Position numbers and translations under genes: made by a program. From assembly GCA_002721445.1 (NCBI GenBank), contig PBKN01000014.1, forward strand, positions 12,988 to 76,987: 64,000 nt of DNA, read 5' to 3'. Under the pieces are notes generated by a model that made no database searches, was not told the origin of the DNA, and saw only the letters and a program-made list of their open reading frames with translations. Every line of letters starts with the position of its first letter. Within the stretch, counting starts at the first letter, position 1. Of this stretch, positions 1,795 to 37,127 are shown piece after piece. This stretch comes from Chloroflexota bacterium. GTDB lineage: Bacteria > Chloroflexota > Dehalococcoidia > Lucifugimonadales > GCA-002723415.

Positions 1795-3030
1795 ATGAAT
1801 AAATTATTTTATAACAGGTGGTGGATTAATAAAGAAGAAAGAAGTTTTCTTCTTTTTGCATCATTTTCTCACGCAATATCAGATGCATGGCATATGCTAT
1901 TTCCTATGCTCATATTTGTGATAGACAATGATTATAATGATTATATATTTTTAAGTTTCTTAATTACAATTACTATTATTACTAGAGCAATATCAGGTTT
2001 TTTATGCGGTATTCTTTCTGACAAAATAAATAGTAAATATATTTTTATATTATTCCCAATACTCACATCTTTAGGCTGCTTAATTGTTTTTCTTTCCCCT
2101 GATAAAATAATTTTAGGCATAGGCTTATCTTTACTTGGGCTAGGTACTGGTATATATCATCCTATTTCTTTATCTTTAATAAGTAAAAACCTAAAAAAAC
2201 AATCTGAAGCTTTAGGTTTCCATGAAGCTGGTGGGATACTCGGTCAATCAATTTTAATTCTTTCTCTTATTTCAGTAGCAGTGCAATTTGGCTGGAAAGA
2301 AGCATTTTTACTTGCAGCAATTATATCAATTTCACCCTTATTTTTAATGATAAAAATTAATGATAAATTTTTTCTTTCTAAAGCTAAATTAAACTTAAAT
2401 AAAATTGAAAATAAAATGAACCCACAAATATTTAATAAGTTTTCAATTTTAATAGTATCTATGGTGTTAATCTACTCAATAATAGTATTATTAGAAGGCT
2501 CTACAACTGCAACTGATTCATTTTTGTCAGCAATTATAGCTGACTTAGGTCAAATTGGAGAAACTACAATCTTTCAAATACCTAAAACAGCTATAATGTA
2601 TAGTTTAATAGTATTACTTGGTACTCCTGGAAGTATTTTAAGTGGAATCTTATCTGCGAAGATAGGCCCAGAAAAAGCTTTATTAATTGTAAGCCTACTA
2701 TGTATTCCAGTATTAATATTTTTATATGCACAAGAAAGTCTAATACTTTTAATTACCCTACCAGTACTTAGAGCTTTAATCTCTTCAAGATCACCTATTC
2801 AAAACGTGCTTATAGCAAAATATATACCTGATAATAAAAGAGGACTTGGGTTTGGTTTTATGTATGGAATATCACCTGTAATTGGAGCTATTATTGCAAT
2901 AATAGGAGGTTATACAATAGAAAATTACACACTGAATTCAGTTTTCTATTTGGCTTCAGTTATACTTATAATATCTTTACCATTACAGATATTATTACAA
3001 TCTTCAAAAATAAATAAACCTACTTCATAA
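1795..3030 (+). CDS. MFS-type transporter
   Basis: Multi-pass hydrophobic protein of about 12 helices. I start it at the internal ATG 1795 (MNKLFYNRWW). The ORF-track start at 1708 would overlap the aminotransferase by 65 nt. Confidence 0.65.
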   Translation: MNKLFYNRWWINKEERSFLLFASFSHAISDAWHMLFPMLIFVIDNDYNDYIFLSFLITITIITRAISGFLCGILSDKINSKYIFILFPILTSLGCLIVFLSPDKIILGIGLSLLGLGTGIYHPISLSLISKNLKKQSEALGFHEAGGILGQSILILSLISVAVQFGWKEAFLLAAIISISPLFLMIKINDKFFLSKAKLNLNKIENKMNPQIFNKFSILIVSMVLIYSIIVLLEGSTTATDSFLSAIIADLGQIGETTIFQIPKTAIMYSLIVLLGTPGSILSGILSAKIGPEKALLIVSLLCIPVLIFLYAQESLILLITLPVLRALISSRSPIQNVLIAKYIPDNKRGLGFGFMYGISPVIGAIIAIIGGYTIENYTLNSVFYLASVILIISLPLQILLQSSKINKPTS

Positions 3031-3042
3031 AGGCCAAAATAT

Positions 3043-3240
3043 ATGATTAACAATAAAAATAAATTAGAACAAATTTTATTGAAATGGATTTACCAACAAA
3101 GAATTTGCAATGAATGTGAAACTAGAATACGTTTTGGAGATATTGAATGCCCTCATTGCGGCCTTGATTTAGAAGAAAGTATTGATGAGTGGATAATCCC
3201 TTTAGCTAATCAAATTTCTTCTTTAGAAAATAGTAAATAA
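3043..3240 (+). CDS. small zinc-ribbon protein (hypothetical)
   Basis: 65 aa with CNEC-x11-CPHC, a four-Cys zinc-ribbon pattern. No other recognisable family. Confidence 0.4.
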   Translation: MINNKNKLEQILLKWIYQQRICNECETRIRFGDIECPHCGLDLEESIDEWIIPLANQISSLENSK

Positions 3241-3373
3241 GGAATTTAATTAAAACTATTCCAACTACAATTGTAGAAAGTTTACTTAGACCTGATTGTG
3301 TATTTGTTCATGCAATATCTAATGATATACACTTAGATGAAGCCTACAAAAAATTACAGAATGCAGTTGATTC

Positions 3374-4471
3374 TTAAACATTAAATCTAAATAAAATAAC
3401 GTCTCCATCTTGAACTTGGTAATCCTTTCCTTCAATCCTCATTTTACCGGCCTCTTTCGCACCTTGCTCTCCATTGAATTTAACATAATCTGAGAAAGAA
3501 ATTACTTCAGCCCTAATAAATCCTTTTTCAAAATCGGTATGAATTGCTCGTGCTGCTCTTGGCGCAGATGAGTTAGATGGGACAGTCCAAGCTCTGGACT
3601 CCTTGGGGCCGGACGTGAAATAAGTCATTAAGTTAAGTAAATCATACCCTTCATATATCATCCTAACTAAGCCGGGTTCTTTCAATCCTAGCTCTTCCAG
3701 AAATTCATATTGATCAGCAGCATCAAGTTGAGAGAGTTCAGATTCTATTTTGGCAGAAATTAAAACAGCCCCAGCACCTTCTTCTCTTGCCATATCAAAA
3801 ACTAATTCTGAATAATGGTTCCCTTTGGAAGCATCAGTTTCATTTACGTTACATACATAGAGAACTGGTTTAGCTGTTAGCAACTGAAGGCTTTTTAATA
3901 GTGCTTCTTCACTATCTTTAATTTCTATAGTACGAACTGGTCTGCCCTCCCGTAAAAGGTCTAAGGCTTTATTCACCAAGCCTATTAATTCCTGGGATTC
4001 CTTATCGCCGCTTTTGGCTTTCTTTGACAAGCTAGGTTCCCGTCTTTCCAGCGTTTCTAGATCTGCCAACATAAGTTCAGTTTCAACAATTTCAAGATCA
4101 GAAAGTGGGTCTATTTTACCTTCTACATGAACTATGTCTGAATCATCAAAGCAACGCAAGACATAGGCTATTGCATCCATCTCTCTAATATTAGCGAGAA
4201 ATTGATTACCCAATCCTTCCCCTTTAGAAGCTCCTTTCACCAAACCTGCAATATCCACAAATGTCATCCTCGTAGGAACAATATTTTCGGAGTTGGTTAT
4301 TTCAGCCAACTCATACAGTCTAGGATCTGGTATTGCGACTTCTCCCACGTTGGGTTCTATGGTACAAAAAGGGTAGTTCTCTGCCTGAGCCATAGCTGTC
4401 TTAGTAAGTGCATTAAAAAGGGTCGATTTGCCGACATTAGGCAATCCTACAATTCCACATTTAAATCCCAT
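3374..4471 (-). CDS. ychF: ribosome-binding ATPase YchF (Obg-like GTPase family)
   Basis: 365 aa. Has the P-loop GIVGLPNVGKSTLFNALT, a TGS-like C-terminus (ESRAWT ... VILFRFNV), and AAGGAA upstream of the ATG. Confidence 0.95.
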   Translation of the reverse strand: MGFKCGIVGLPNVGKSTLFNALTKTAMAQAENYPFCTIEPNVGEVAIPDPRLYELAEITNSENIVPTRMTFVDIAGLVKGASKGEGLGNQFLANIREMDAIAYVLRCFDDSDIVHVEGKIDPLSDLEIVETELMLADLETLERREPSLSKKAKSGDKESQELIGLVNKALDLLREGRPVRTIEIKDSEEALLKSLQLLTAKPVLYVCNVNETDASKGNHYSELVFDMAREEGAGAVLISAKIESELSQLDAADQYEFLEELGLKEPGLVRMIYEGYDLLNLMTYFTSGPKESRAWTVPSNSSAPRAARAIHTDFEKGFIRAEVISFSDYVKFNGEQGAKEAGKMRIEGKDYQVQDGDVILFRFNV

Positions 4472-4495
4472 GAGTTCCTTTCAAAATATTCATAA

Positions 4496-5539
4496 TCAAA
4501 TTGCAAGTATATTTGCAGGATTATTAATTATAATATTATCAATTTGCTTTCTTGACATACCTTTTTCTATCATATGAGGGATTACATTTTCAATTATATG
4601 GCTAAAGCCATGTCCTCCATATTTTTGTAGTCTATGTTTTGTACATATATCTTGGGCAATAACTATTTGTTTTTCGTAGCCTTTTGATATTAAATATATT
4701 AAATAATCAATTCGTTGTCCGTCGCTCAACATATCAAAATTTGATAGAGGATAAAAAGATGTTTCTTGACCGAATAAATCATATTCTAAGTAACAACCGT
4801 TCTCTGCTATTTCAATTAAAACATCATAGCTTGATACAGTTCTATCTAGATGTCCCATAATTGTTCTGGTGAGATCAGCTCCAGATTCTTTTAATATTTT
4901 AATAATTTCTTTTGGAGATTCTTCATCTCGTCCTGGGTGTATTAATATAGCAACTCCAGTCTCAGCTTGAGCTGCAGCAGAGGCTCTTAAAACTTTAGTT
5001 TCATTTTTTGTTAATGGCCAAGAGCAACCTATTTCACCAATAATTCCTGCTTTAATATTAGTATCCCCTACCCCATGGGTTATATCGTCTATAATCATTT
5101 GTGTAATTGTAGATTCTTTGATCTCATCCATATTTTTTGGATGAGATTTATCTACATAATAACTTGCACCCATAACAACATTAATATTTGTAGCACGTGA
5201 AACTCGTGCTAATGCTAATGGATCTCTGCCTATACCAATTGAAGTAGCATCTACTATTGTGCCTCCCCCTGCCCTTTTATATTTACTTGCTTCTGTTATA
5301 GTTATTTCTTCATCTGATATTAATAGATTGTCTAAATTACTAGTCCAGTTTCTTCTTATCCATCCTAAATTATCAAGTCGTATAGATTCATATGCTTTAA
5401 ATAATTCTGTTGACTCTTTAGGTTCAATAAGCATAGCTTTAAAATCTATAAATAAATGTTCATGAGTAGTCGTTATTCCCAAATCTTCAGGTTTAATTTT
5501 GCCAAGAACAGTTTGTATATACTTTGATGAATTAGTCAT
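4496..5539 (-). CDS. phosphotriesterase-family (PTE homology, amidohydrolase superfamily) protein
   Basis: 347 aa. Has the THEHL metal-binding motif near the N-terminus, GIIGEIG, and later His/Asp ligands (ILIHPGR, AQDICTKH). Confidence 0.85.
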   Translation of the reverse strand: MTNSSKYIQTVLGKIKPEDLGITTTHEHLFIDFKAMLIEPKESTELFKAYESIRLDNLGWIRRNWTSNLDNLLISDEEITITEASKYKRAGGGTIVDATSIGIGRDPLALARVSRATNINVVMGASYYVDKSHPKNMDEIKESTITQMIIDDITHGVGDTNIKAGIIGEIGCSWPLTKNETKVLRASAAAQAETGVAILIHPGRDEESPKEIIKILKESGADLTRTIMGHLDRTVSSYDVLIEIAENGCYLEYDLFGQETSFYPLSNFDMLSDGQRIDYLIYLISKGYEKQIVIAQDICTKHRLQKYGGHGFSHIIENVIPHMIEKGMSRKQIDNIIINNPANILAI

Positions 5540-5562
5540 TATATTCTGCCTTAAATATATTC

Positions 5563-6210
5563 TTAATTGTTAATATCTATACCATCTAACACAGGTAGTT
5601 TATCAAATATATTAGAATTTGGAGTTACATATATTAAACAATCTAAAGTTTCCGGGACAAATTCAGATATTTCAAAACTTTCAATATACCAATCCTTATC
5701 ACTACCTCTATCAATAAACCTCCAATATAACGCAGGATAACTAGTATACTGGTATGATAAAGATTCACCTTTATATAACCATTTAACAGATACAAAACCT
5801 TGCAAATGATTTACTGATTTGTAATTCCCTAATAATTTTTCGCCTTGTTCTATTTTTTCTTTTTCTTTTTGACTAGTCGGTTTTACAATTTTAATTCTAT
5901 CAATTGTAATAGATACATCTTTATCCCAATTAACAAAATCAGAATTCCTCTTCCAATTTTCCAATTCATTGTTATTAATATTTACAAAGTTGTCTAAATC
6001 ACATTTCTCCTTCATTCGATAGCTAATATATTTAGTGTAAATTTCTTCCATATTTCCATCTTGCCATGAATTTATAAATCCTTGTGAACGAGATGTAAGG
6101 TTTTTCAAATCATTATCAGAACAACTGATTAAAATAAATGATGAAATGAGTAAAAAAATAAACACCCCAAAAATCTTAGAATAATACTTTAAATTATATT
6201 TATTAAACAT
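5563..6210 (-). CDS. hypothetical lipoprotein
   Basis: N-terminal hydrophobic segment followed by the lipobox-like LISC. ATG at 6210 overlaps the TGA stop of the upstream gene (TGATG). The ORF-track start at 6213 is a TTG one codon earlier. Confidence 0.5.
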   Translation of the reverse strand: MFNKYNLKYYSKIFGVFIFLLISSFILISCSDNDLKNLTSRSQGFINSWQDGNMEEIYTKYISYRMKEKCDLDNFVNINNNELENWKRNSDFVNWDKDVSITIDRIKIVKPTSQKEKEKIEQGEKLLGNYKSVNHLQGFVSVKWLYKGESLSYQYTSYPALYWRFIDRGSDKDWYIESFEISEFVPETLDCLIYVTPNSNIFDKLPVLDGIDINN

Positions 6211-9356: not shown

Positions 9357-10790
9357 CTAAATAAATGATAAGTTTTCAACAATTTCAACCAGTAAATTAT
9401 TATCTCCAACATTGCCTGCAAATACAATAAACTTCATACTAGGAATGCTACTCTCAACACCTAATTCCCATACAGATACTCCTGGCGCAACTTGGCCTAA
9501 AACTATCGCTTTGCTGACATTAAAGTTATATTTTGAAATATAATCTGCAGTTGTAGATCCTTTACAAATAATATAATTTGGTTCAACTTCAACTTTATTT
9601 ATTATTGAAATTAAACATTCTAAAACTTTAACCCCAATTTCTCTCGAATCATAATTATTAAACTTTAAATTTTCTCTATTTGTGTACAATACCACATCTT
9701 TTTTTATGTTTAAATTTTGATCAATTAAATTTGCAATTTCATTTACTGCTACTAAATTTAATCCTTCATTTTCACATATAATATTATCAATATTGATTTT
9801 TATCGGAAAAATATTAGGTAACTCAAGTAATTTTTTCAATTGTTGATTAGTTTTATCAACATATGACCCAACTATAATCAAAGCACCCTTTTCTGATTTC
9901 AACCCAAGAGACTTTCTATTTAAAAGTGGCTTGTTCCTTTGTCCTAATAATGCTCTAATAAAAGAAGAAGCAGTAATATATAAAAAATTTTTGTTCCTTT
10001 TCTTAATTTTCAATATAGCATATGCAACAACTTCAATATCGCTCATAGAAATAGCATTAACAATGCAAATTTGATCTTTATATAATGAATCAAGAATAGA
10101 TACAATTCTATCAGGTCCACCTATTCTTATATCATCAATAGATATTGATTTTATTTTTTTTATATACTTATTACTGCCTAATTGTTCTGACACCCAATTT
10201 ATAAGATCAGAACTTTTATATGGGAAATTATGATCTTTAGAAAATTCACTGTCTGAAACTGGTATTAAAATTTCCTGGTTTTTATTCGAATCAAATTCTG
10301 AAACATATTGAATATTATCAATAGTATATCGTCTGCCTTCAAAAAAATATGGTATAAATAGAATACCATTTAATTTATTTTTTGTTTGTTTTAAATGAGA
10401 TTCTACTATCACTTTGAAATGCCCTCGTAAAGTAGAATCAAAACGATACAAAATATCTATATTACCCGATAACAAATCAGAAATTTCTTCAATTAATTCA
10501 ATTGTATTTTTAATAATTTTTTGTGCATCTTTTTGATTTAAAGTCCTATGGTTTGTATTAAAAAATAGCACTTTATTTAGCTCATTAAATTCTTGTAAAA
10601 CAGATTTGCAATTCCATTTATTCATAATAGTAACGTCCGAAACTGTTTGGGTTCCAGCAGGGTCATCATCTATTACTGCTAAACGAAAAGATGCATCTTT
10701 TAATATTTGTATTATTTTTGGGATTAAGTCTTCAGACCATTCATCAGGAAATTCTTTGATTGCTTTATTAAATCTTATATTTTGTCCCAT
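9357..10790 (-). CDS. four-carbon acid sugar kinase family protein (DUF1537-like)
   Basis: 477 aa. N-terminal VIDDDPAGTQTV resembles the ADDFTGA motif of the family. C-terminal KGSTTADY, APGVSVW and VFAGNVG resemble the GG-x-TA / PG-x-P / K-x-G-x-FG nucleotide-binding domain. Confidence 0.6.
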   Translation of the reverse strand: MGQNIRFNKAIKEFPDEWSEDLIPKIIQILKDASFRLAVIDDDPAGTQTVSDVTIMNKWNCKSVLQEFNELNKVLFFNTNHRTLNQKDAQKIIKNTIELIEEISDLLSGNIDILYRFDSTLRGHFKVIVESHLKQTKNKLNGILFIPYFFEGRRYTIDNIQYVSEFDSNKNQEILIPVSDSEFSKDHNFPYKSSDLINWVSEQLGSNKYIKKIKSISIDDIRIGGPDRIVSILDSLYKDQICIVNAISMSDIEVVAYAILKIKKRNKNFLYITASSFIRALLGQRNKPLLNRKSLGLKSEKGALIIVGSYVDKTNQQLKKLLELPNIFPIKINIDNIICENEGLNLVAVNEIANLIDQNLNIKKDVVLYTNRENLKFNNYDSREIGVKVLECLISIINKVEVEPNYIICKGSTTADYISKYNFNVSKAIVLGQVAPGVSVWELGVESSIPSMKFIVFAGNVGDNNLLVEIVENLSFI

Positions 10791-10799
10791 ATTTAAATA

Positions 10800-12116
10800 T
10801 TATTCACACGCACACTCGGATTGGAAATCACAAAATTTAAACATCCAAGGTGGACACTTTGGCAAATCACCATGAACAGCATTATTTTCCAATAAATCCA
10901 ATCTATGTTTTGATTCTTTTAATATATTATCCCGACTATGAAAAATAACATCATATACCATGAATTTATCATTTGGTATTTTGTCATAATAAAGTATTAA
11001 CCGCCCTTTCTGAATATTCATTATTGCACATTCTATTGCTAATCTATCGAAGTAATGAGGGAAAAATTCTGCTAATTTATTTCTATCAATCATAGATGAA
11101 TTACTATTAGTCCTTAAAATAGTTGGAATATCAAATAACAAATCAACCTTATCAATTATAGATTCTAATCTGACTTCTATAGTTTTATAATCCTCTTTGA
11201 ATCCATATTTTAAACTATCATTTAATGCAGCTCTGAATCCTTGTTTTTCAAGAGTATAAATATTATTAAATAGATAATCAGATTCTTCATTAACTTTGAC
11301 TTGGTTAGATTTTCTTTTTAATATTGCTTTTCTAGGAAATACCAAATCATTTATTATAAATTTATCTGTATCGCTATATTGTGGCATCTCATAAGATTTA
11401 ATTTCTTCAATTAAATCATCTCTTTCAACAATCTCTATTTCATCTTCCATAATAAGAGGCGAAGAATCTTGCATATCTTTACATCTACATATTGATCTAT
11501 AATCACAACCTTGGAAAAACCATTCACATTTTGGCAATTTTGAATTATCTTTAGTAGACAAAGCTTCTTTAAAATCATCTCGTATTTCAATTATTTCTTG
11601 TTGTATTTTTTCAATATTTAAAAATTCAACATCTATAATTTTTAATTTAGAATATTTATTATTATTTTTACGCTCATATATTATTAATCTACCTTTAGTC
11701 TCATTTGTCATGGCGCAATACATTCCCAGTTGATCGAAATAAGATGATCTATATTTATACAAATTAGAAGGAATTTTAGACGTAGTTTTAATTTCTATAG
11801 GAATATCATCATATATATCAATTTTACCTACTACACCTTGATATTCAACCAACTGTTCTAAAAATTCTTCTTCAGATATTACTTGCCCAAATAGGTCATG
11901 GAAACCAGTTCCTGCTAACATGTTTTGTACTTTATTCATAGATGGATTAATATCTGGCCGAGTACGTCTATAAAATGATTGCATAGGACTTACTAAGTCA
12001 GTCACTGAAACTCTAGACCTTGATCTATTAGAATAAATCGACTTAATAATTGAATCTTTTAAAGTACGGTTAGCATCAATAGATCTAATATACTTATTAG
12101 AAAAAGTATTACTCAC
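10800..12116 (-). CDS. tandem-duplicated PD-(D/E)XK (Cas4/RecB-like) nuclease-fold protein with two four-Cys clusters
   Basis: 438 aa with a GTG start. The first half has GFHDLF, GKIDIYDDIPIEIKT (D...E-x-K), YFDQLGMY (Q-x3-Y) and KCEWFFQGCDYRSICRC. The second half repeats the same blocks in degenerate form (DKVDLLFDIPTILRT, YFDRLAIE, KCPPWMFKFCDFQSECAC). Confidence 0.55.
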   Translation of the reverse strand: MSNTFSNKYIRSIDANRTLKDSIIKSIYSNRSRSRVSVTDLVSPMQSFYRRTRPDINPSMNKVQNMLAGTGFHDLFGQVISEEEFLEQLVEYQGVVGKIDIYDDIPIEIKTTSKIPSNLYKYRSSYFDQLGMYCAMTNETKGRLIIYERKNNNKYSKLKIIDVEFLNIEKIQQEIIEIRDDFKEALSTKDNSKLPKCEWFFQGCDYRSICRCKDMQDSSPLIMEDEIEIVERDDLIEEIKSYEMPQYSDTDKFIINDLVFPRKAILKRKSNQVKVNEESDYLFNNIYTLEKQGFRAALNDSLKYGFKEDYKTIEVRLESIIDKVDLLFDIPTILRTNSNSSMIDRNKLAEFFPHYFDRLAIECAIMNIQKGRLILYYDKIPNDKFMVYDVIFHSRDNILKESKHRLDLLENNAVHGDLPKCPPWMFKFCDFQSECACE

Positions 12117-12164
12117 TTATTTATATTCCTAAAATTAGTAATATATAGATACATTTAATATTTT

Positions 12165-13025
12165 TTATATTTTCTGAAATTTACTTACTCTATTTGCCGG
12201 AGAAAGTTCAGCAACATATATTGAACCTTGAGAATCTACACAAATCCCATGTCCAGATATTAAAGTTCCTTTTCCTTCTCCTTTATGTGCCCACCAACGT
12301 GTAATCAATTCTCCTTCGAGAGTCCATATGCTTACACCACCCACTTCTGTTTGTTCAACAATATACACAACATCGTTATCTATATATATATCACCAGGCA
12401 TATGTAGATCATTCCATTCCTCTAAATATTCCCCTTCAGAGTTAAATATTTGCACACGATTATTCTCTCTATCACAAACAAATACTCTGTCAAATCTATC
12501 AACTGTAAGGTTATGAACAATTGCAAATTCAGATTTACCCGTTCCAAATTTACCCCATGATTTATCTAGCAAGCCAAATCTATCAAATTTATGAACTCTT
12601 TTATTCCCATATCCATCAGATACATATATATCTCCTTTGGATGATATAGACAAACCTGAAGGCATATTAAAAGGATGCCCATAATACGTATCTGATGGGA
12701 TCATTTTTTCCCCTAGTGTAGTAAGTAAAGAACCATCCGGACTATGCTTTGTTACAAGATGATAATTAGCATCGACTAGCCATACACAATCATGTGAATC
12801 TATAAATATACCATGTTCATTATTTGAAAATTCACCTTCTCCCCAAGAAGAAATGAAGTTTCCCTCCAAATCCCATATGGTCAGAGGGTGTTTACCCCTA
12901 CTAAAAACATGAACTTCATCTGAAGAATTAACGTCCACGTCAGAAGTTGCACCAAAATCCCAATATTTTGGCAAATTAGGCCATACTGGGACTCTTTCAT
13001 ATTTAAAATCACCTGAACCTAACAT
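12165..13025 (-). CDS. NHL-repeat six-bladed beta-propeller protein
   Basis: Repeated D-x-x-N-x-R-[VI]-x-x-F blades (GYGNKRVHKF, DRENNRVQIF, SPANRVSKF). I use ATG 13025, which has GGAGG 9 nt upstream, rather than the TTG at 13031. Confidence 0.7.
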   Translation of the reverse strand: MLGSGDFKYERVPVWPNLPKYWDFGATSDVDVNSSDEVHVFSRGKHPLTIWDLEGNFISSWGEGEFSNNEHGIFIDSHDCVWLVDANYHLVTKHSPDGSLLTTLGEKMIPSDTYYGHPFNMPSGLSISSKGDIYVSDGYGNKRVHKFDRFGLLDKSWGKFGTGKSEFAIVHNLTVDRFDRVFVCDRENNRVQIFNSEGEYLEEWNDLHMPGDIYIDNDVVYIVEQTEVGGVSIWTLEGELITRWWAHKGEGKGTLISGHGICVDSQGSIYVAELSPANRVSKFQKI

Positions 13026-13156
13026 AATCAAAATCCTCCAAAAAATTAATTTATATATATGATGCCATACCTATCAAATATAGTATATTATATTCATATT
13101 AATACAATTCTCAATATATAAAGATTGTCAATTAAACTTTCTATTAGGAGACCAAT

Positions 13157-13489
13157 ATGCAAATAAATGAACTAATTAATAATTCATATGAAACTGCTAA
13201 AAGTAAAGGTTGGTGGGATGATAAAAATAGAAACATACCAGAACTTTTGGCATTAATTCATAGTGAAGTGAGCGAAGCTTTAGAAGAATATCGTGAAAAT
13301 GGCTATGAGAAAAAATATTATAGAGAAAATGATAATAAACCCGAAGGTTTCATATATGAATTAGCAGATATATTAATAAGAGTAGCAGATATGTCTGCTC
13401 ATTATAAATTGGATTTAGAAAATGCCCTTATAGAAAAAATGGATTTTAATAAGACAAGATCATACAGACATGGCAATAAAAAAGCCTAA
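13157..13489 (+). CDS. small MazG-like all-alpha NTP pyrophosphohydrolase
   Basis: 110 aa. IHSEVSEALEE and ELADILIRV form the E-x-x-E ... E-x-x-D metal-binding helices of MazG-like/dimeric dUTPase-like enzymes. AGGAG lies upstream. Confidence 0.75.
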   Translation: MQINELINNSYETAKSKGWWDDKNRNIPELLALIHSEVSEALEEYRENGYEKKYYRENDNKPEGFIYELADILIRVADMSAHYKLDLENALIEKMDFNKTRSYRHGNKKA

Positions 13490-14568
13490 CTCAAACCAAT
13501 TTCTAATTTAATTTCAGGTTCTATATAAGGTGATTCCTTTTGATAGACTTGAAGCCTACCACATATATCTGTAATAAATATTCTATTTTGATTATCTATA
13601 TCTAAACCTACTGGTCTAACAAATTTCCAAATAGGTGAAAAATCTTTTACTTTTCTATGGGCTCTTATAGTTTCAGGGTCTCTTCTAATAATATATTCAC
13701 CAGCCTTAGATAAGGTTTCAGCATCTCCATATAAAGAAGCTAAGAGGTCTCCATTAGCCTCAAATATTACTATTCTTTTATTCCCCCAATCACTAATGTA
13801 AACATCTCCTTCATTATCTACTGCAATAGAAGAAGGATGGTTTAAATCATCATAAGGAGGTCCAATTCTATTTCCAAAAGTCATTATAAATTCGCCTGAA
13901 TTAGAAAATTTTTGCACCCTATTATTACCCCAATCAGCAACATAAATATTGTCCTCATTGTCTATAGTAATACCCCAAGGTCTATCAAACTCACCTTCAT
14001 TTATTCCTTTACGGCCTAATTTAGTAATAAACTTTCCATCATGCGAAAATTTCTGAACTCTATTATTTCCTGAATCAACTACTAAAATGTCGTTGTTACT
14101 ATTAATTGATACTCCACTCGGTGAAATCAATTCACCATCAAGAGAACCCTTCTTTCCCCATTGACCTATGCGTTCACCATCTGGATTATAATCAGGATAT
14201 GGATAAATAACATCTGAAGGTAAAATCACAACAGTATTTTCATATTCATCAGTAACATAAAGTAAATTATCTTTAGATAATGCTATACTAGATGGCCAGG
14301 TAAATTCTCTACGTGCAAAATCACCAATATGGTTTTCATCAACAGTAGTCTTTCCAATTCTCCCGAAATCTTCAAATCCAGGGCCTGCACCATAACCAAG
14401 TCCTCTACTTAAAACAAATAAAATATCATCTGGAGCAACAACAACATCTACAGGATATCTATATCCACCAGTAGTTCCAAATTGGTGCCCTACGTTATGT
14501 TCATTGCTTGGCCTACCTAAAGCATGACTAAAATGCCAGGCCTTGCTTCCTGCTGTAGTTGTTATCAT
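13486..14568 (-). CDS. NHL-repeat beta-propeller protein
   Basis: 360 aa with DSGNNRVQKF, DWGNNRVQKF and DWGNKRIVIF blades. Its start lies 2 nt after the DUF1501 stop. Confidence 0.8.
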   Translation of the reverse strand: MITTTAGSKAWHFSHALGRPSNEHNVGHQFGTTGGYRYPVDVVVAPDDILFVLSRGLGYGAGPGFEDFGRIGKTTVDENHIGDFARREFTWPSSIALSKDNLLYVTDEYENTVVILPSDVIYPYPDYNPDGERIGQWGKKGSLDGELISPSGVSINSNNDILVVDSGNNRVQKFSHDGKFITKLGRKGINEGEFDRPWGITIDNEDNIYVADWGNNRVQKFSNSGEFIMTFGNRIGPPYDDLNHPSSIAVDNEGDVYISDWGNKRIVIFEANGDLLASLYGDAETLSKAGEYIIRRDPETIRAHRKVKDFSPIWKFVRPVGLDIDNQNRIFITDICGRLQVYQKESPYIEPEIKLEIGLS

Positions 14569-14570
14569 AA

Positions 14571-15707
14571 TTAAACAGCAACCTTAGAAATAAAATTAGA
14601 TTTTGAAAAATTTCCATTTAACAAAGGAATAGAGTCTAGACTGAACCAATCTTCTATTACTGTAGAATATAGACTTCTAAAATCAACATTATAAGCTAAA
14701 TCTCCATTTACTAATTCTTCAGCTCGAATCTTTGGATAGTCGCCATAAAATCCACCTTTAACTTGTGGCCCAATTGCAAATACTGCTCCAGCAGCTCCGT
14801 GATCAGTACCAGAACCATTTTCCTTAACTCTTCGTCCAAATTCAGAAAATATAACCATTAATACATTATCTACAGCAGAATGTTCATATAAATCATCCCA
14901 AAAGTCTGCTACTGATTTAGATACTTCATTCCATAATTTAGCATGATTAGGTGCTTGTGCAGCATGAGTATCAAAACCACCATGTTCAACATAAAATACT
15001 CTTGTCCCAAGGTCTGCTAATAATATTCTAGCAATATCTTTCATTTTTGTACCCAAACTATCAGAACCATATTCTACAGAACTAGAATAAGTTTCAGGCG
15101 CAATTTTCAATGTGTCTGCTCCTTTTAAAGCATCCAAACCTGTCTGTCCAAGATAATCCATTACGGGACCTGAACCAATAGCTGGTGCATACATACTTGC
15201 AAAACGATTTAGTAAATGTTCTCTTTGTTTTTGTTTATCAATCGAAGTCAACATACCATAATTATCTAGATCTGCAACTGAGGCCACTGACACATTAGGA
15301 GCAACCAATGCTCTAGGTAAACCATAACCAACATTTACTGCAGCTATAGGATTTTCTCCATTAGGATCAATCTCTCTTATAATCTTTGCAATCCAGCCTT
15401 CATGTCCTACTTTATCTGGTTCTGCAGTATGCCATATATCCATAGCTCTAAAATGAGACCTTGTAGGACTTTCCCATCCAACTCCATTTAATATTGCCAT
15501 ATTTCCTCTATCAAATATCTTTTTCATTGGCAACATAGAAGGATTAAAAGCAAAATCTGCATTCAATTTATGTATATTATTTTCGCCAAAATTTAAAGTA
15601 GGCCTGTTGTCATAGTAATTCGGGTCTTGATAAGGAATGACTGTATTTAAATAGTCATTACCACCTGTTAATTGCAACATAACTAATATAGGGTCTTTAT
15701 TTTTCAT
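14571..15707 (-). CDS. DUF1501-family protein (alkaline-phosphatase/sulfatase-like superfamily)
   Basis: 378 aa. LTGGNDYLN, HGGFDTHA and FSEFGRR are family-typical motifs. The N-terminus starts directly at the conserved core, with no twin-arginine leader. Confidence 0.85.
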   Translation of the reverse strand: MKNKDPILVMLQLTGGNDYLNTVIPYQDPNYYDNRPTLNFGENNIHKLNADFAFNPSMLPMKKIFDRGNMAILNGVGWESPTRSHFRAMDIWHTAEPDKVGHEGWIAKIIREIDPNGENPIAAVNVGYGLPRALVAPNVSVASVADLDNYGMLTSIDKQKQREHLLNRFASMYAPAIGSGPVMDYLGQTGLDALKGADTLKIAPETYSSSVEYGSDSLGTKMKDIARILLADLGTRVFYVEHGGFDTHAAQAPNHAKLWNEVSKSVADFWDDLYEHSAVDNVLMVIFSEFGRRVKENGSGTDHGAAGAVFAIGPQVKGGFYGDYPKIRAEELVNGDLAYNVDFRSLYSTVIEDWFSLDSIPLLNGNFSKSNFISKVAV

Positions 15708-15725
15708 TAATTACCTCTCTAAAAA

Positions 15726-17153
15726 TTAACCGAACTGATATTCTCTCGTGCCAGCTATCAAAGAAAAAACTTCTGCTAAATCTAGTCCAAATCTATTTTG
15801 ATTAATATCATTAAACTCCAATAAATTCCTTGAAATAATTTCAGCTTCAATTTCGGATCGGCTAGTGTCATTCAATGTAAAATATCCTACAAATTCTAAA
15901 CATTTATCTAGAAATTCAGTTTCTGATTGAATATTCGAATTCTTCAATCTAGTAATTAAATCTATAATCCCAGGTGAATTAATATTTTTAAATTGATCAG
16001 ACATAAAATTAACTCTATTAATAAAAGAACCACTATTAACCCATTCTTTGCCAGTATGCCAACCTTCTACAGATGGAGGATCAAATAAAGCTTGCCCCAT
16101 AAAAGTCGTTTGGTCAGCAAAATAAGACCATCTAGGGTCAGGACCATTCATATCTTCAGTAAGTTTAAAAGTTCCAACCACAACTTCAGCTGGAGATTTA
16201 ATCTTTTTAAACTTTGATTTTTTAAAAAATTCCGAATTGAACATTGCTCTCAAAACTGGTTTCATCTGAAAATTTTCTTTAACAAAAACATCACATAAAT
16301 AATCAATAGCATCTTGGTCTTGAGGAGGGTCAATAGGCCAAGCAGGTACCTGAGGTTCATCTGCAACAAAAAAATTATATAAATGCCTCATAATAAATTT
16401 ATGGCATGCTGGTTCCTGGACAATAATATCTATAATATCATCTCCATTAAAATTACCTTTCCTACCTAAAAATGTTTTTTCTCCATAATCATGATCTTCA
16501 GGTTTATATTCAAATTCCCATAAATGAGGCCCCCACAACAACCAATGAATTTTGGGACTTACTGTCCAGCCTGTAAATGCTCGTGAACATTCAAAAACAT
16601 CTTCCTCAGTGTAATTTCCAGCACCCATTGAAAAAAGTTCCAATAATTCTCTTCCCCAATTTTCATTAGGGGCTTTTTTGTGGTTTTCAGTATTATCTAA
16701 CCAATAAAGCATCGCAGGATCTCTTGCGAGTTTTTTTAATAAATCTCTATAACTTCCTAATCCATACTCACGAAACATTTTTATTTGTTCATTTAACTGA
16801 ATTGAACTTTCAACTTTTGAATTACCTGTAGCGAATACATAATGCCAAAATAAAGCCATTTTCTCTTCTAAAGGATTTGAAGTATTGACCATTCTATAAA
16901 GCCATTCTAAGCCAACATGATTATTACCAAGATGGCTAGGTCTATCAATCATCGGATGATATCTAGTTAGAGTAAATTCATCAATTGAATCTGACGAGTC
17001 AAAATCAATTAGAGAATCGACAAGATCTTCGTAAGGTATATTGATTAAAGACTCTAATTCTAATGGAGAAGCTCCAAAAGATGCTCTTCTCATCAAATGA
17101 GCTATTTCAGATAGTTTTTCAGAAGTTTTATTTTTATCTAGTAAATTTGTCAT
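15726..17153 (-). CDS. DUF1800-family protein
   Basis: 475 aa. LMRRASFG and WLDNTENHKKAPNENWGRELLELFSMG match DUF1800 signature regions. It is the usual upstream partner of DUF1501. Confidence 0.85.
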   Translation of the reverse strand: MTNLLDKNKTSEKLSEIAHLMRRASFGASPLELESLINIPYEDLVDSLIDFDSSDSIDEFTLTRYHPMIDRPSHLGNNHVGLEWLYRMVNTSNPLEEKMALFWHYVFATGNSKVESSIQLNEQIKMFREYGLGSYRDLLKKLARDPAMLYWLDNTENHKKAPNENWGRELLELFSMGAGNYTEEDVFECSRAFTGWTVSPKIHWLLWGPHLWEFEYKPEDHDYGEKTFLGRKGNFNGDDIIDIIVQEPACHKFIMRHLYNFFVADEPQVPAWPIDPPQDQDAIDYLCDVFVKENFQMKPVLRAMFNSEFFKKSKFKKIKSPAEVVVGTFKLTEDMNGPDPRWSYFADQTTFMGQALFDPPSVEGWHTGKEWVNSGSFINRVNFMSDQFKNINSPGIIDLITRLKNSNIQSETEFLDKCLEFVGYFTLNDTSRSEIEAEIISRNLLEFNDINQNRFGLDLAEVFSLIAGTREYQFG

Positions 17154-36253: not shown

Positions 36254-36326
36254 GGCAACGTAGCTCAGTGGTTAGAGCGGGCGCTTCATAAGCGCTAGGT
36301 CACAGGTTCGAGTCCTGTCGTTGCCA
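36254..36326 (+). tRNA. tRNA with CAT anticodon (elongator Met, or Ile2 if lysidine-modified); no encoded CCA
   Basis: Hand-folded cloverleaf. Acceptor is GGCAACG/CGTTGCC, D arm is GCTC/GAGC, anticodon stem is GGCGC/GCGCT with loop TTCATAA, and T arm is ACAGG-TTCGAGT-CCTGT. The paired 1-72 position argues against an initiator. Confidence 0.9.
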
Positions 36327-36413
36327 CACCTCTAAATAATACTTTTATAATTATAAATAAACATTATATATTATTTAAATTAGTTAATAATGAAAAAATA
36401 AAGAATCAATCTT

Positions 36414-36489
36414 GCGCTTGTAGCTCAGTGGATAGAGCGCAGCCCTGCGGAGGCTGAGGTCGTGGGTTCGAATCCCACCAAGCGCGCCA
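36414..36489 (+). tRNA. tRNA-Arg (GCG anticodon), CCA encoded
   Basis: Acceptor is GCGCTTG/CAAGCGC, anticodon stem is CAGCC/GGCTG with loop CTGCGGA (anticodon GCG, G37), and T arm is GTGGG-TTCGAAT-CCCAC. The D-loop contains an A at the position-20 region used as an Arg identity element. Confidence 0.88.
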
Positions 36490-36598
36490 CATTTTTTTCA
36501 TTTAAATCAGAATATTTTATGTACTTTCAATAACATTACTATTTACAAAATCAAAGGGTAAATTGATTGATAAAGTATTAACGTATATAATAATTATG

Positions 36599-36630
36599 GA
36601 TGAAGTTATATATCCACATATAACTTCATC
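36599..36630. repeat. perfect 13-bp inverted repeat (hairpin) in the tRNA spacer
   Basis: GATGAAGTTATAT (36599-36611), loop ATCCAC, then ATATAACTTCATC (36618-36630). Confidence 0.7.
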
Positions 36631-36683
36631 TTAAAGAATTACCCTATTATGTACCTTTTTCAGTTGGTAATATATATATGTCA

Positions 36684-36956
36684 TTACTTTATAAAGAATT
36701 CCCAAATCAAAACTCTTAATGAAAACACAAACCATATAAACCCTAGTGCAGCTGATGACATACCATATTTTTTACCCATTACAGCAGTTATTAAGGGAAC
36801 TCCTAATGCACAAAACATTCCTGCGGCATAGAGTTGTGACCCATATAATACATTGACAACTGTCCATATAAACATGAGAACCAATATTAGTCTCATGATA
36901 TAGTGATTAGAAAATATTGCTCCTAACTTCTTGTATAATATAATTGCGGTTTCCAT
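36684..36956 (-). CDS. small hypothetical membrane protein
   Basis: About 90 aa from ATG 36956, with GGAG just upstream, and three hydrophobic segments. No recognisable family. It is the only plausible ORF between tRNA-Arg and tRNA-Val. Confidence 0.3.
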   Translation of the reverse strand: METAIILYKKLGAIFSNHYIMRLILVLMFIWTVVNVLYGSQLYAAGMFCALGVPLITAVMGKKYGMSSAALGFIWFVFSLRVLIWEFFIK

Positions 36957-37050
36957 TCTTCTCCAGACCAATTAGATCAATACTACAACGAATATAATTA
37001 AAAAACATACCACTAATTTGATTTAATGATGTACAATATATAAATTAAAA

Positions 37051-37127
37051 GGGCGATTAGCTCAGCTGGTTAGAGTGTCTGTCTTACACACAGAAGGTCC
37101 GAGGTTCGAGTCCTCGATCGCCCACCA
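37051..37127 (+). tRNA. tRNA-Val (TAC anticodon), CCA encoded
   Basis: Acceptor is GGGCGAT/ATCGCCC, anticodon stem is TCTGT/ACAGA with loop CTTACAC, and T arm is CGAGG-TTCGAGT-CCTCG. Confidence 0.9.

Follow-up and report, generated by a model that had tools for sequence, protein, structure and literature searches.

A tandem Cas4-like protein with one predicted active site and two four-cysteine motifs, from a large uncharacterized family of uncultured bacteria and archaea

The gene and its duplicated protein

Within a 64,000-nucleotide stretch of a Chloroflexota genome (contig PBKN01000014.1 of GenBank assembly GCA_002721445.1; hereafter the window, meaning the whole stretch that was analyzed), one open reading frame (ORF) encodes a protein made of two Cas4/RecB-like modules, the first with a predicted nuclease active site and the second without catalytic motifs. 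We refer to this protein as the tandem nuclease. The ORF lies on the minus strand at 10800–12116 (438 residues plus stop); it starts at a GTG (12116) and stops at a TAA (10800–10802). A first-pass annotation, made by reading the window without database searches, had given the coordinates and length correctly but left the strand unstated; on the plus strand, translation of the same interval is broken by stops throughout. As judged from sequence, a ribosome-binding-like AGGA lies at 12127–12130 on the minus strand, 10 nt upstream of the GTG, and the N-terminus lines up with 120 full-length homologs. All protein features described below are likewise encoded on the minus strand.

Sequence comparison confirmed that the two halves are homologous, well past chance, as the first-pass annotation had proposed in describing two copies of one module. 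BLASTP of residues 1–219 against 220–438 aligned 189 residues at 30% identity (E = 2e-17), and hhalign comparison of family alignments of each half gave a probability of 99.5% (E = 5.8e-23, 198 columns). This alignment begins at the strand and helix of the N-terminus and reaches the cysteine motif, and the duplication therefore took in the whole module. The peptide blocks that had been quoted from each copy are all present in the stated order. In the N-terminal module (residues 1–219; 11460–12116), these are VSVTDLVSP (36–44), GFHDLF (71–76), GKIDIYDDIPIEIKT (97–111), YFDQLGMYCAM (126–136), and LPKCEWFFQGCDYRSICRC (194–212); in the C-terminal module (residues 220–438; 10803–11459), they are FIINDLVFP (253–261), GFRAAL (293–298), DKVDLLFDIPTILRT (322–336), YFDRLAIECAIM (355–366), and LPKCPPWMFKFCDFQSECAC (418–437). 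The N-module is assigned as a catalytically intact Cas4/RecB-like nuclease domain through PHROG 1706, PADLOC Cas4, and hhalign (see below), and the C-module as a homologous Cas4-like domain through BLASTP, hhalign, and its own structural model.

Structural modeling supports a Cas4-type PD-(D/E)XK fold for both halves. A full-length AlphaFold2 (AF2) model, built with 35 homologs (mean predicted local distance difference test score, pLDDT, 84; predicted template modeling score, pTM, 0.72), had the Cas4 protein SSO0001 (4ic1) as its top Foldseek match in the PDB (E = 1.6e-5, probability 1.0), above LHK-exonuclease, lambda exonuclease, MGME1, RecE, RecB, and AdnA; the two-domain proteins CinB and CidB were recovered as full-length matches with low template modeling (TM) scores. 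The C-half modeled alone (m483380694a41, pLDDT 79) also recovered 4ic1 first (E = 4e-6, probability 1.0), above MGME1, LHK-exonuclease, RecE, lambda exonuclease, AdnAB, and Exo5. Among predicted viral structures, the best matches were archaeal-virus Cas4-like nucleases and phage nucleases of the YqaJ/lambda-exonuclease type. At the sequence level, PHROG 1706 ("CRISPR/Cas system associated") matches residues 26–214 (E = 5e-19) and PADLOC Cas4 matches the N-half (E = 5.5e-5), and these results together bear out the Cas4/RecB-like relationship that had been suggested from motifs. PADLOC gave no match beyond weak Cas4 and PD-(D/E)XK hits, NCBIfam has no model for the tandem nuclease, and the C-half alone matched nothing in Pfam, NCBIfam, PADLOC, or PHROG. 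Weak NCBIfam matches to YcgN "cysteine cluster" proteins fell far under their cut-offs and were treated as noise from the cysteine-rich linker.

Predicted active and degenerate modules

Conservation was assessed across 328 full-length members aligned to one hidden Markov model (HMM), comprising 120 core-subfamily proteins, 96 representatives at 50% identity, and 112 Thermoplasmata proteins. The alignment shows that the N-module holds a complete predicted RecB-type active site: His73, Glu87, Asp100, Glu108-x-Lys110, and Gln129-x3-Tyr133. D100, K110, Q129, and Y133 are each kept in 328/328 members, E108 and E87 each in 327, and H73 in 321. H73 ends the motif GTGFH (residues 69–73; 11898–11912) and is the predicted metal-ligand histidine of the RecB/Cas4 active site; the motif I glutamate, E87 (11856–11858), follows 14 residues later, equal to the spacing of His44 and Glu58 in LinCas4, and metal ligation by His, Asp, and Glu has been described for Cas4 (PMC8610317). 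Motifs II and III are represented by D100 ... E108-I-K110 (11787–11819), and the QxxxY motif by Q129-LGM-Y133 followed directly by C134, a fifth cysteine (11715–11732). One further segment, IDANRTLKD (residues 13–21; 12054–12080), is near-invariant in the 120 core-subfamily proteins across phyla and is not conserved in the wider tandem family.

The C-module presents the reverse picture. Counterparts of motifs I to III and of QxxxY occur in its half in 0/328 members. The segment DKVDLLFDIPTILRT (11109–11153) is a degenerate motif II/III in which I333 occupies the position of E108 and R335 that of K110. At position 333, 317 members have I, L, or V, with an acidic residue never among those listed, while position 335 is R or K in 316 and position 325, equivalent to D100, is not conserved. 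The former QxxxY helix, YFDRLAIECA (residues 355–364; 11025–11054), carries an R358/E362 pair followed by C363; the pair is R...E in 115/120 core members and E/D...R in all 112 Thermoplasmata members, and a charge-swapped i,i+4 pair of this kind is typical of a structural salt bridge rather than of catalysis. The second copy is thus predicted to be catalytically dead, as had been suspected from the window sequence.

Loss of catalysis has not been accompanied by loss of the module. NDLVFPR (residues 256–262; 11331–11351), the counterpart of VTDLVSP in the N-module, keeps P261 in 321/328 members and R262 in 325/328, and the near-universal residues of the C-half also include an acidic residue at 257, P331, Arg/Lys335, L418, P422, W424, and the cysteine set. 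Mean column identity is 53% in the C-half versus 67% in the N-half. Because the C-half is this well conserved, it is better read as a maintained non-catalytic module than as a decaying copy.

Cysteine sites and their history

The tandem nuclease contains ten cysteines, five per half (134, 197, 204, 210, and 212; 363, 421, 429, 435, and 437), and none before residue 134. Four in each half form a predicted metal site: LPKC197-x6-C204-x5-C210-x-C212 in the N-module (11481–11537) and LPKC421-x7-C429-x5-C435-x-C437 in the C-module (10806–10865). C197, C204, C210, and C212 are each present in at least 327/328 members, and C421, C429, and C435 each in at least 326/328; C437 is substituted in members that keep C-x4-C-x2-C-x5-C, a pattern that persists in the C-half of the tandem members P0133, P0182, P0217, P0222, and P0261. 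The first-pass description of four exclusively C-terminal cysteines per half holds across the family but overlooked the fifth cysteine of each half. C134 and C363 sit directly after the Y/E of the Q-x3-Y position and show little or no variation in the core subfamily, yet are kept in 66/96 and 73/96 representatives, respectively, and vary in single-module relatives; this variability makes them unlikely cluster ligands, and they were discounted as such.

The spacing of the four conserved cysteines had been described as not recognized from the characterized families. It is indeed non-canonical (the ligand arrangement and catalytic motifs of Cas4 have been published; PMC8610317, PMC5704561), but it can be traced to the canonical pattern through single-module relatives. 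Exhaustive searching recovered complete single-module proteins of 203–234 residues (P0210, P0211, P0225, P0228, P0264, P0265, P0266, and P0269), some of which score above the Pfam PDDEXK_1 cut-off (27–38 bits); P0265 reaches 22.5 bits against a Cas_Cas4 cut-off of 22.7. By hhalign, this group matches the N-half at E = 3.7e-47 and the C-half at E = 9e-29, whereas the halves match each other only at 5.8e-23. That each half is closer to the single-module group than to the other half is as predicted by duplication of such an ancestor. Most single-module relatives end in LPxC-PxWM-C-xx-C-x5-C, while P0265 has no LPxC cysteine and instead carries one in an N-terminal helix (SELVYC), 30 residues before the histidine, which is the canonical Cas4 arrangement.

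Column mapping places the single-module LPxC cysteine at C197 and C421 and the last two single-module cysteines at C204/C429 and C210/C435. The "WM-C" cysteine falls on Phe or another residue in the tandem protein, and C212 and C437, two residues past the last ligand, are new. Alignment to P0265 puts the canonical N-terminal ligand position at Pro44/Pro261. The mapping suggests that the non-canonical pattern is a derived Cas4 site in which two ligands have relocated while the count has held at four.

Family distribution and genomic context

The tandem nuclease is a member of a large uncharacterized family known only from uncultured bacteria and archaea. A word-indexed search recovered 589 relatives of about 440 residues, each of them full-length, none named and none with a Pfam domain. 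When the N-half profile was used for an exhaustive HMM search, at least 689 clusters at 50% identity were recovered (E ≤ 1e-3), 333 of them with E ≤ 1e-10; most measure 440–500 residues and are matched over two stretches, as a tandem protein would be. The family is not covered by any Pfam or NCBIfam model. In GTDB, sampled at one genome per species, 50 loci were found, all in metagenome-assembled genomes (MAGs), distributed among Chloroflexota/Dehalococcoidia, Gemmatimonadales, Armatimonadota, "ANGP1", one Thermoplasmata archaeon, and one Acidobacteria genome; uncultured Thermoplasmata form a second large clade. Mean column identity across phyla is 58%. By tblastn, the family had 0 matches in 50,697 phage records and 72,556 plasmid records, and none in IMG/VR contigs, and a phage or plasmid origin was ruled out on these grounds. 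In the literature, no description was found of a tandem Cas4-like family or of a Cas4-type partner of MrfAB. Two publications on MrfAB likewise say nothing of an incision nuclease missing from that pathway, and no such gap is claimed here.

In the window, the gene downstream of the tandem nuclease encodes a DUF1537-type kinase (9357–10790, minus strand; SBD_N, E = 4.8e-38, and NBD_C, E = 9.8e-23), separated from the tandem nuclease stop by 9 nt. Upstream, after a gap of 48 nt, lies an NHL-repeat beta-propeller gene (12165–13031, minus strand), and the best promoter-like site on this strand (13087–13114) is upstream of that gene. The tandem nuclease and the kinase are probably co-transcribed. 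Short metatranscriptome contigs from four marine RNA runs cover parts of the tandem nuclease, two of them spanning the junction with the kinase, which is weak evidence that the gene is transcribed and that it is co-transcribed with the kinase; many marine metagenomes also contain near-identical DNA. The first-pass annotation had singled out this close linkage to the kinase, and it stands for the window. Elsewhere, however, adjacency to the kinase was found only in L008, a MAG from Chloroflexota with a protein 77% identical to this one, and in none of about 50 other loci. A linkage limited to these two genomes says little about function, and the kinase was ruled out as a functional partner because the linkage is not conserved.

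Farther out, the neighborhood in the window comprises genes for a Sortilin/BNR protein, for a second NHL protein, and for a luciferase-like oxidoreductase, together with a MazG-like ORF on the opposite strand and a DUF1501/DUF1800 pair. The MazG-like ORF (13157–13489, plus strand; 110 residues; weak similarity, E = 0.03) is wedged between the NHL-repeat genes at 12165–13031 and 13486–14568, both on the minus strand. The DUF1501/DUF1800 pair occupies 14571–17153 on the minus strand (E = 1e-26 and 1e-96), and a DUF1800 gene is also present near the homolog in L003. The nuclease/kinase junction is overlain by an 89-residue antisense ORF (10606–10875, plus strand), which, the sequence being AT-rich, is probably spurious. 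A tRNA cluster at 36254–37127 on the plus strand comprises three genes, Met-CAT, Arg-GCG, and Val-TAC. The tandem nuclease has no helicase, cas, or addA-like neighbor within about 6 kb, and the 64-kb window contains neither a CRISPR-like or other repeat array nor a paralog of the gene. Short same-strand gaps are frequent in this compact genome, and the proportion of G and C is even across the window (0.29–0.33, about 0.30); given this uniformity, the gene does not sit in a compositionally foreign island.

Partners were sought across the family by clustering the flanking ORFs of 58 loci all against all and by tallying Pfam domains in 69 operon-like neighbors, and cas domains were absent from the 25 commonest Pfam families of those 69 neighbors at other loci. 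The contexts that recur do so within clades. In Thermoplasmata, the gene stands as a single unit, with a flavin adenine dinucleotide (FAD) oxidoreductase on one side and acetyltransferase, phosphoribosyl pyrophosphate (PRPP) synthetase, and eIF2-gamma genes on the other, a synteny that is stable over proteins 54–100% identical. In the Armatimonadota/ANGP1-like clade, mrfA and mrfB precede the tandem nuclease on the same strand at six loci (L004 1759–5122; L028 209–3642; L029 1798–5393; L031 2445–5904; L034 2535–5989; and L038 approximately 2514–5801), with the tandem nuclease directly following in L029, L031, and L034. MrfA was recognized by its DEAD, Helicase_C, WHD_HRQ1, and MZB domains, and MrfB as an RNase_H_2-type exonuclease. 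The absence of any helicase, Cas, or AddA-like partner, as noted in the first-pass annotation, is correct for the vicinity of the gene in the window but does not extend to this clade. The tandem proteins of these loci are 55–66% identical between lineages, indicating that the synteny has outlasted substantial divergence. MrfAB is a helicase and 3′–5′ exonuclease pair acting on mitomycin C damage, and MrfB-associated YprA helicases sit in the DNA-repair branch of the YprA family (PMC12458937). The arrangement suggests a three-gene repair module of MrfA, MrfB, and the tandem nuclease in this clade.

Other neighbors are sporadic, including Ada-AlkA (L006), MGMT-like genes (L022, L024, L025, and L054), and an ERCC4-domain protein. 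In a Dehalococcoidia subclade, a DUF763 gene lies just upstream (L046 4752–5837; L050 4426–5511; L051 4688–5836; L041 3988–5079; L042 2764–3852), with Pfam E-values down to 2e-135 and the five proteins 87–94% identical; no functional literature on DUF763 and no sequence relative in the PDB was found, which leaves this neighbor uninformative. In one Dehalococcoidia genome only (L002 9357–11411, equal to L009 7357–9408), a 684-residue NgoFVII-type phospholipase D (PLD) nuclease starts 4 nt after the tandem nuclease, and the two could be a two-nuclease pair. PIN/RHH toxin–antitoxin pairs stand beside the homolog in L004. The distant tandem member P0261 lies in a conjugative-element-like region (L058 1–9944) with TrbL, TrbC/pilin, Hjc resolvase, and tyrosine integrase genes, a context unlike the chromosomal contexts elsewhere in the family. 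An IS605 OrfB/Cas12f1-like TnpB gene (L062 12329–13371), about 5 kb from a Thermoplasmata homolog, is probably incidental.

Discussion

The tandem nuclease is best read as a stand-alone iron–sulfur (Fe-S) nuclease of the Cas4/RecB branch of PD-(D/E)XK enzymes, with a single active site and, less certainly, a function in chromosomal DNA repair, and we regard this explanation as likely. Such a protein would have arisen by tandem duplication and fusion of a single-module Cas4-like protein of about 220 residues, giving a single-chain pseudo-dimer with one catalytic centre per polypeptide, in the N-module. The dead C-module may stand in for the second subunit of an ancestral oligomer, as a built-in, non-cutting partner for DNA binding, positioning, or scaffolding. 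With its lone catalytic centre the protein would cut a single strand or end; it is accordingly envisaged as a Mg/Mn-dependent nuclease of the single-stranded DNA, 5′-end, or flap type rather than as a symmetric double-strand cutter. Each four-cysteine motif is proposed to hold an Fe-S cluster with a structural or DNA-binding role. The ligand set would have become fully C-terminal as the LPxC cysteine took over from the canonical N-terminal cysteine, with the middle cysteine of CxxC next replaced by a new one two residues past the last ligand.

Several observations weigh against this explanation or loosen its parts. Nuclease activity, substrate, and metal content are all predictions in this uncharacterized family. 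Foldseek TM-scores to Cas4 are modest, at about 0.5 (about 0.55 on the target for the full-length model). Pfam PDDEXK_1 (PF12705) scores 18.8 bits for the N-half and 16.9 for the whole protein, below its cut-off of 22; it reaches E ≤ 0.01 in only 9/35 core members, and none of the 35 scores above the cut-off. Profile searches against PDB sequences, with full-length and N-half alignments, returned chance-level matches only. No family-wide partner gene or conserved neighborhood emerged from the 58 loci or the 69 neighbors, and only one related clade shows the linkage to mrfAB, which neither the window nor about 40 other loci share. Some members lie near transposases and integrases (L001 and L003) or a conjugation module (L058). 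The RNA contigs, finally, are short and of low depth, and DNA carry-over could contribute to them.

The cellular role is proposed with lower confidence than the enzyme class. A link to repair draws on the mrfAB genes upstream at six loci, on the place of MrfB-associated YprA helicases in a repair branch, and on the scattered MGMT, Ada-AlkA, and ERCC4 neighbors; the even base composition, the absence from phage, plasmid, and IMG/VR records, and the stable Thermoplasmata synteny give the gene a chromosomal, housekeeping-like character. It would be in chromosomal repair or recombination, in the processing of 5′-ends, flaps, or gaps, rather than in CRISPR adaptation or phage defense, and in some lineages it may, more tentatively, be exercised together with MrfAB. 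A more specific scenario can be sketched, in which a housekeeping repair nuclease of several uncultured phyla carries two Fe-S clusters and one active site; the dead, cluster-bearing module recognizes a DNA structure or lesion, or senses redox state, and positions the live module for a single directed incision, and in some lineages the protein acts as the incision or 5′-processing partner of the MrfA helicase and the MrfB 3′–5′ exonuclease. We consider this full scenario speculative and, taken as a whole, rather unlikely.

Of the alternatives, the one that survives best concerns the metal. The four-cysteine motifs might bind zinc, or nothing, and serve as purely structural knuckles, in which case the protein would not be an Fe-S enzyme. 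The four ligands all fall within 16–17 residues, as in a small zinc knuckle. Cas4 and AddB are defined by an N-to-C "staple" geometry, which has been lost here, and the sole NCBIfam matches are the weak ones to YcgN-type "cysteine cluster" proteins. Further, some Cas4 enzymes, LinCas4 and PcaCas4, stay active without the Fe-S cluster (PMC8610317). On the other hand, three of the four ligand columns are homologous to cysteines of the single-module relatives, among which P0265 has the canonical Cas4 arrangement. Zinc ribbons and knuckles have paired CxxC...CxxC motifs, from which spacings of x6/7, x5, and x1 differ. The ligand count also stays at exactly four despite the swapping of positions, which fits a need to maintain a cluster. 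Homology with Cas4, AddB, and Dna2 makes an Fe-S cluster the most likely occupant of each site, and zinc or an empty site, while conceivable, appears unlikely.

It is also conceivable, though improbable in our judgment, that the tandem nuclease serves mobile elements or anti-phage defense, whether as a "solo Cas4" or as part of a YprA-helicase defense system. The neighbors at individual loci (the transposases and integrase of L001 and L003, the toxin–antitoxin pairs of L004, the PLD/NgoFVII-like nuclease 4 nt downstream in L002, and the TrbL/TrbC, Hjc, and integrase genes of L058) keep a mobile-element or defense role in consideration as a minority reading. The best named sequence match is, moreover, a phage family, PHROG 1706, and YprA helicases are central to several defense systems (PMC12458937). 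However, PADLOC recovered only its weak Cas4 and PD-(D/E)XK matches, the phage, plasmid, and IMG/VR collections yielded none, and the composition of the gene is the same as that of the surrounding genome. The Thermoplasmata synteny is stable and lies among housekeeping genes, and the associated helicases are of the MrfB-linked type that the YprA survey places in its DNA-repair branch (PMC12458937). The very high conservation of the family across phyla (58% mean column identity, as above) is likewise unlike that of fast-evolving defense genes.

The C-module might, instead of acting as a decoy, have another catalytic or ligand-binding function, built on D/E257, R262, and R/K335. Its half is under strong purifying selection and has near-universal residues of its own, including P261, R262, P331, and the cysteine set. 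The counterparts of motifs I to III and of QxxxY are gone in 328/328 members, though, and the former Q/Y positions behave as a charge-swapping structural salt bridge. The conserved D/E-L-V-x-P-R motif is also present in the N-half (VTDLVNPR) and is therefore a feature of the module rather than a new active site. A second function of this kind seems quite improbable, and a non-catalytic partner module is preferred. Least credible of all is a metabolic pathway shared with the DUF1537 kinase, in which nuclease ancestry would be irrelevant to the present role: the kinase does follow on the same strand after 9 nt, with RNA contigs crossing the junction, but short same-strand gaps are many in this compact genome, the adjacency recurs only in L008, and the nuclease catalytic residues are invariant.

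Comparison with known systems and significance

Cas4 (SSO0001, 4ic1; PF01930, Cas_Cas4/DUF83) is the best structural match of both the full-length and C-half models, and the PADLOC Cas4 profile matches as well (E = 5.5e-5). Cas4 differs from the tandem nuclease in consisting of one module rather than two fused modules, the second devoid of all catalytic motifs, and in its ligand pattern, which is Cys(N)...C-x2-C-x5-C in Cas4 and C-x6/7-C-x5-C-x-C, without an N-terminal cysteine ligand, in the tandem nuclease. Cas4 proper is also encoded alongside cas1/cas2 in a CRISPR-cas locus, whereas no cas1/cas2 or array is near the gene in the window. The tandem nuclease would work in the manner of a Cas4/RecB-family Fe-S nuclease but fails to qualify as Cas4 proper: it has neither a cas context nor the N-terminal cysteine staple, it has no PF01930 hit at E ≤ 1, and its PDDEXK_1 match is sub-threshold.

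The closest sequence relatives outside the tandem family are the single-module metagenome proteins (P0210, P0211, P0228, P0265, and others; PDDEXK_1, PF12705) together with PHROG 1706. The single-module and tandem proteins have in common the motifs HVSDLxxPR, GxIDxxxDxPxExKTTR, QLxYY, and LPxCPxWM. The single-module relatives, however, are only about 205–235 residues long, with one module and intact catalytic motifs, and are presumably homo-oligomeric; their cysteine pattern is C-x4-C-x2-C-x5-C, or, in P0265, the canonical N-terminal cysteine plus CxxCx5C.

The "iron-staple" domains of AddB, AdnAB, and Dna2 are likewise of the RecB family, and AdnA is among the Foldseek matches. Their four-cysteine Fe-S cluster is thought to be structural or DNA-binding. 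Helicase or helicase-like motors are fused to these domains and the staple extends across the domain, whereas the tandem nuclease has no motor and its ligands are all local. No superfamily 1 (SF1) helicase of the AddAB/RecBCD type is found in the protein or among its neighbors in the window; the helicase upstream in one clade is the superfamily 2 (SF2) protein MrfA, with MrfB.

Precedents for paired PD-(D/E)XK modules exist in RecB–RecC, where RecC carries a degenerate nuclease-like domain, and in Wolbachia CidB/CinB, which have tandem PD-(D/E)XK domains. Neither has a detectable sequence relationship to the tandem nuclease, and neither has cysteine clusters. Their partners and biology also differ, RecB–RecC forming large helicase complexes and CidB/CinB being eukaryote-targeting toxins.

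Tandem pairs of active and dead nuclease modules are therefore already known, as are Fe-S nucleases, and the tandem nuclease opens no new category of system. Its novelty lies in the combination of a single-chain Cas4-like pseudo-dimer with two all-C-terminal cysteine sites, whose relocation can be traced, and a large uncharacterized family restricted to uncultured lineages. If the proposed reading is correct, a family of at least 689 clusters at 50% identity, spanning bacteria and archaea, lies outside every curated library. It would also document two uncommon evolutionary events, namely the conversion of a homo-oligomeric Cas4-type nuclease into an asymmetric enzyme whose single chain carries a live and a dead site, and the stepwise relocation of metal-cluster ligands with their count fixed at four. 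The family would, further, supply a candidate DNA-repair component, with a possible link to MrfAB, in abundant uncultured lineages: marine Chloroflexota, soil Gemmatimonadota and Armatimonadota, and Thermoplasmata. And because the dead module keeps its predicted cluster site without catalysis, the tandem nuclease may offer a compact natural model for the role of the Fe-S cluster in nucleases of the Cas4, AddB, and Dna2 type.

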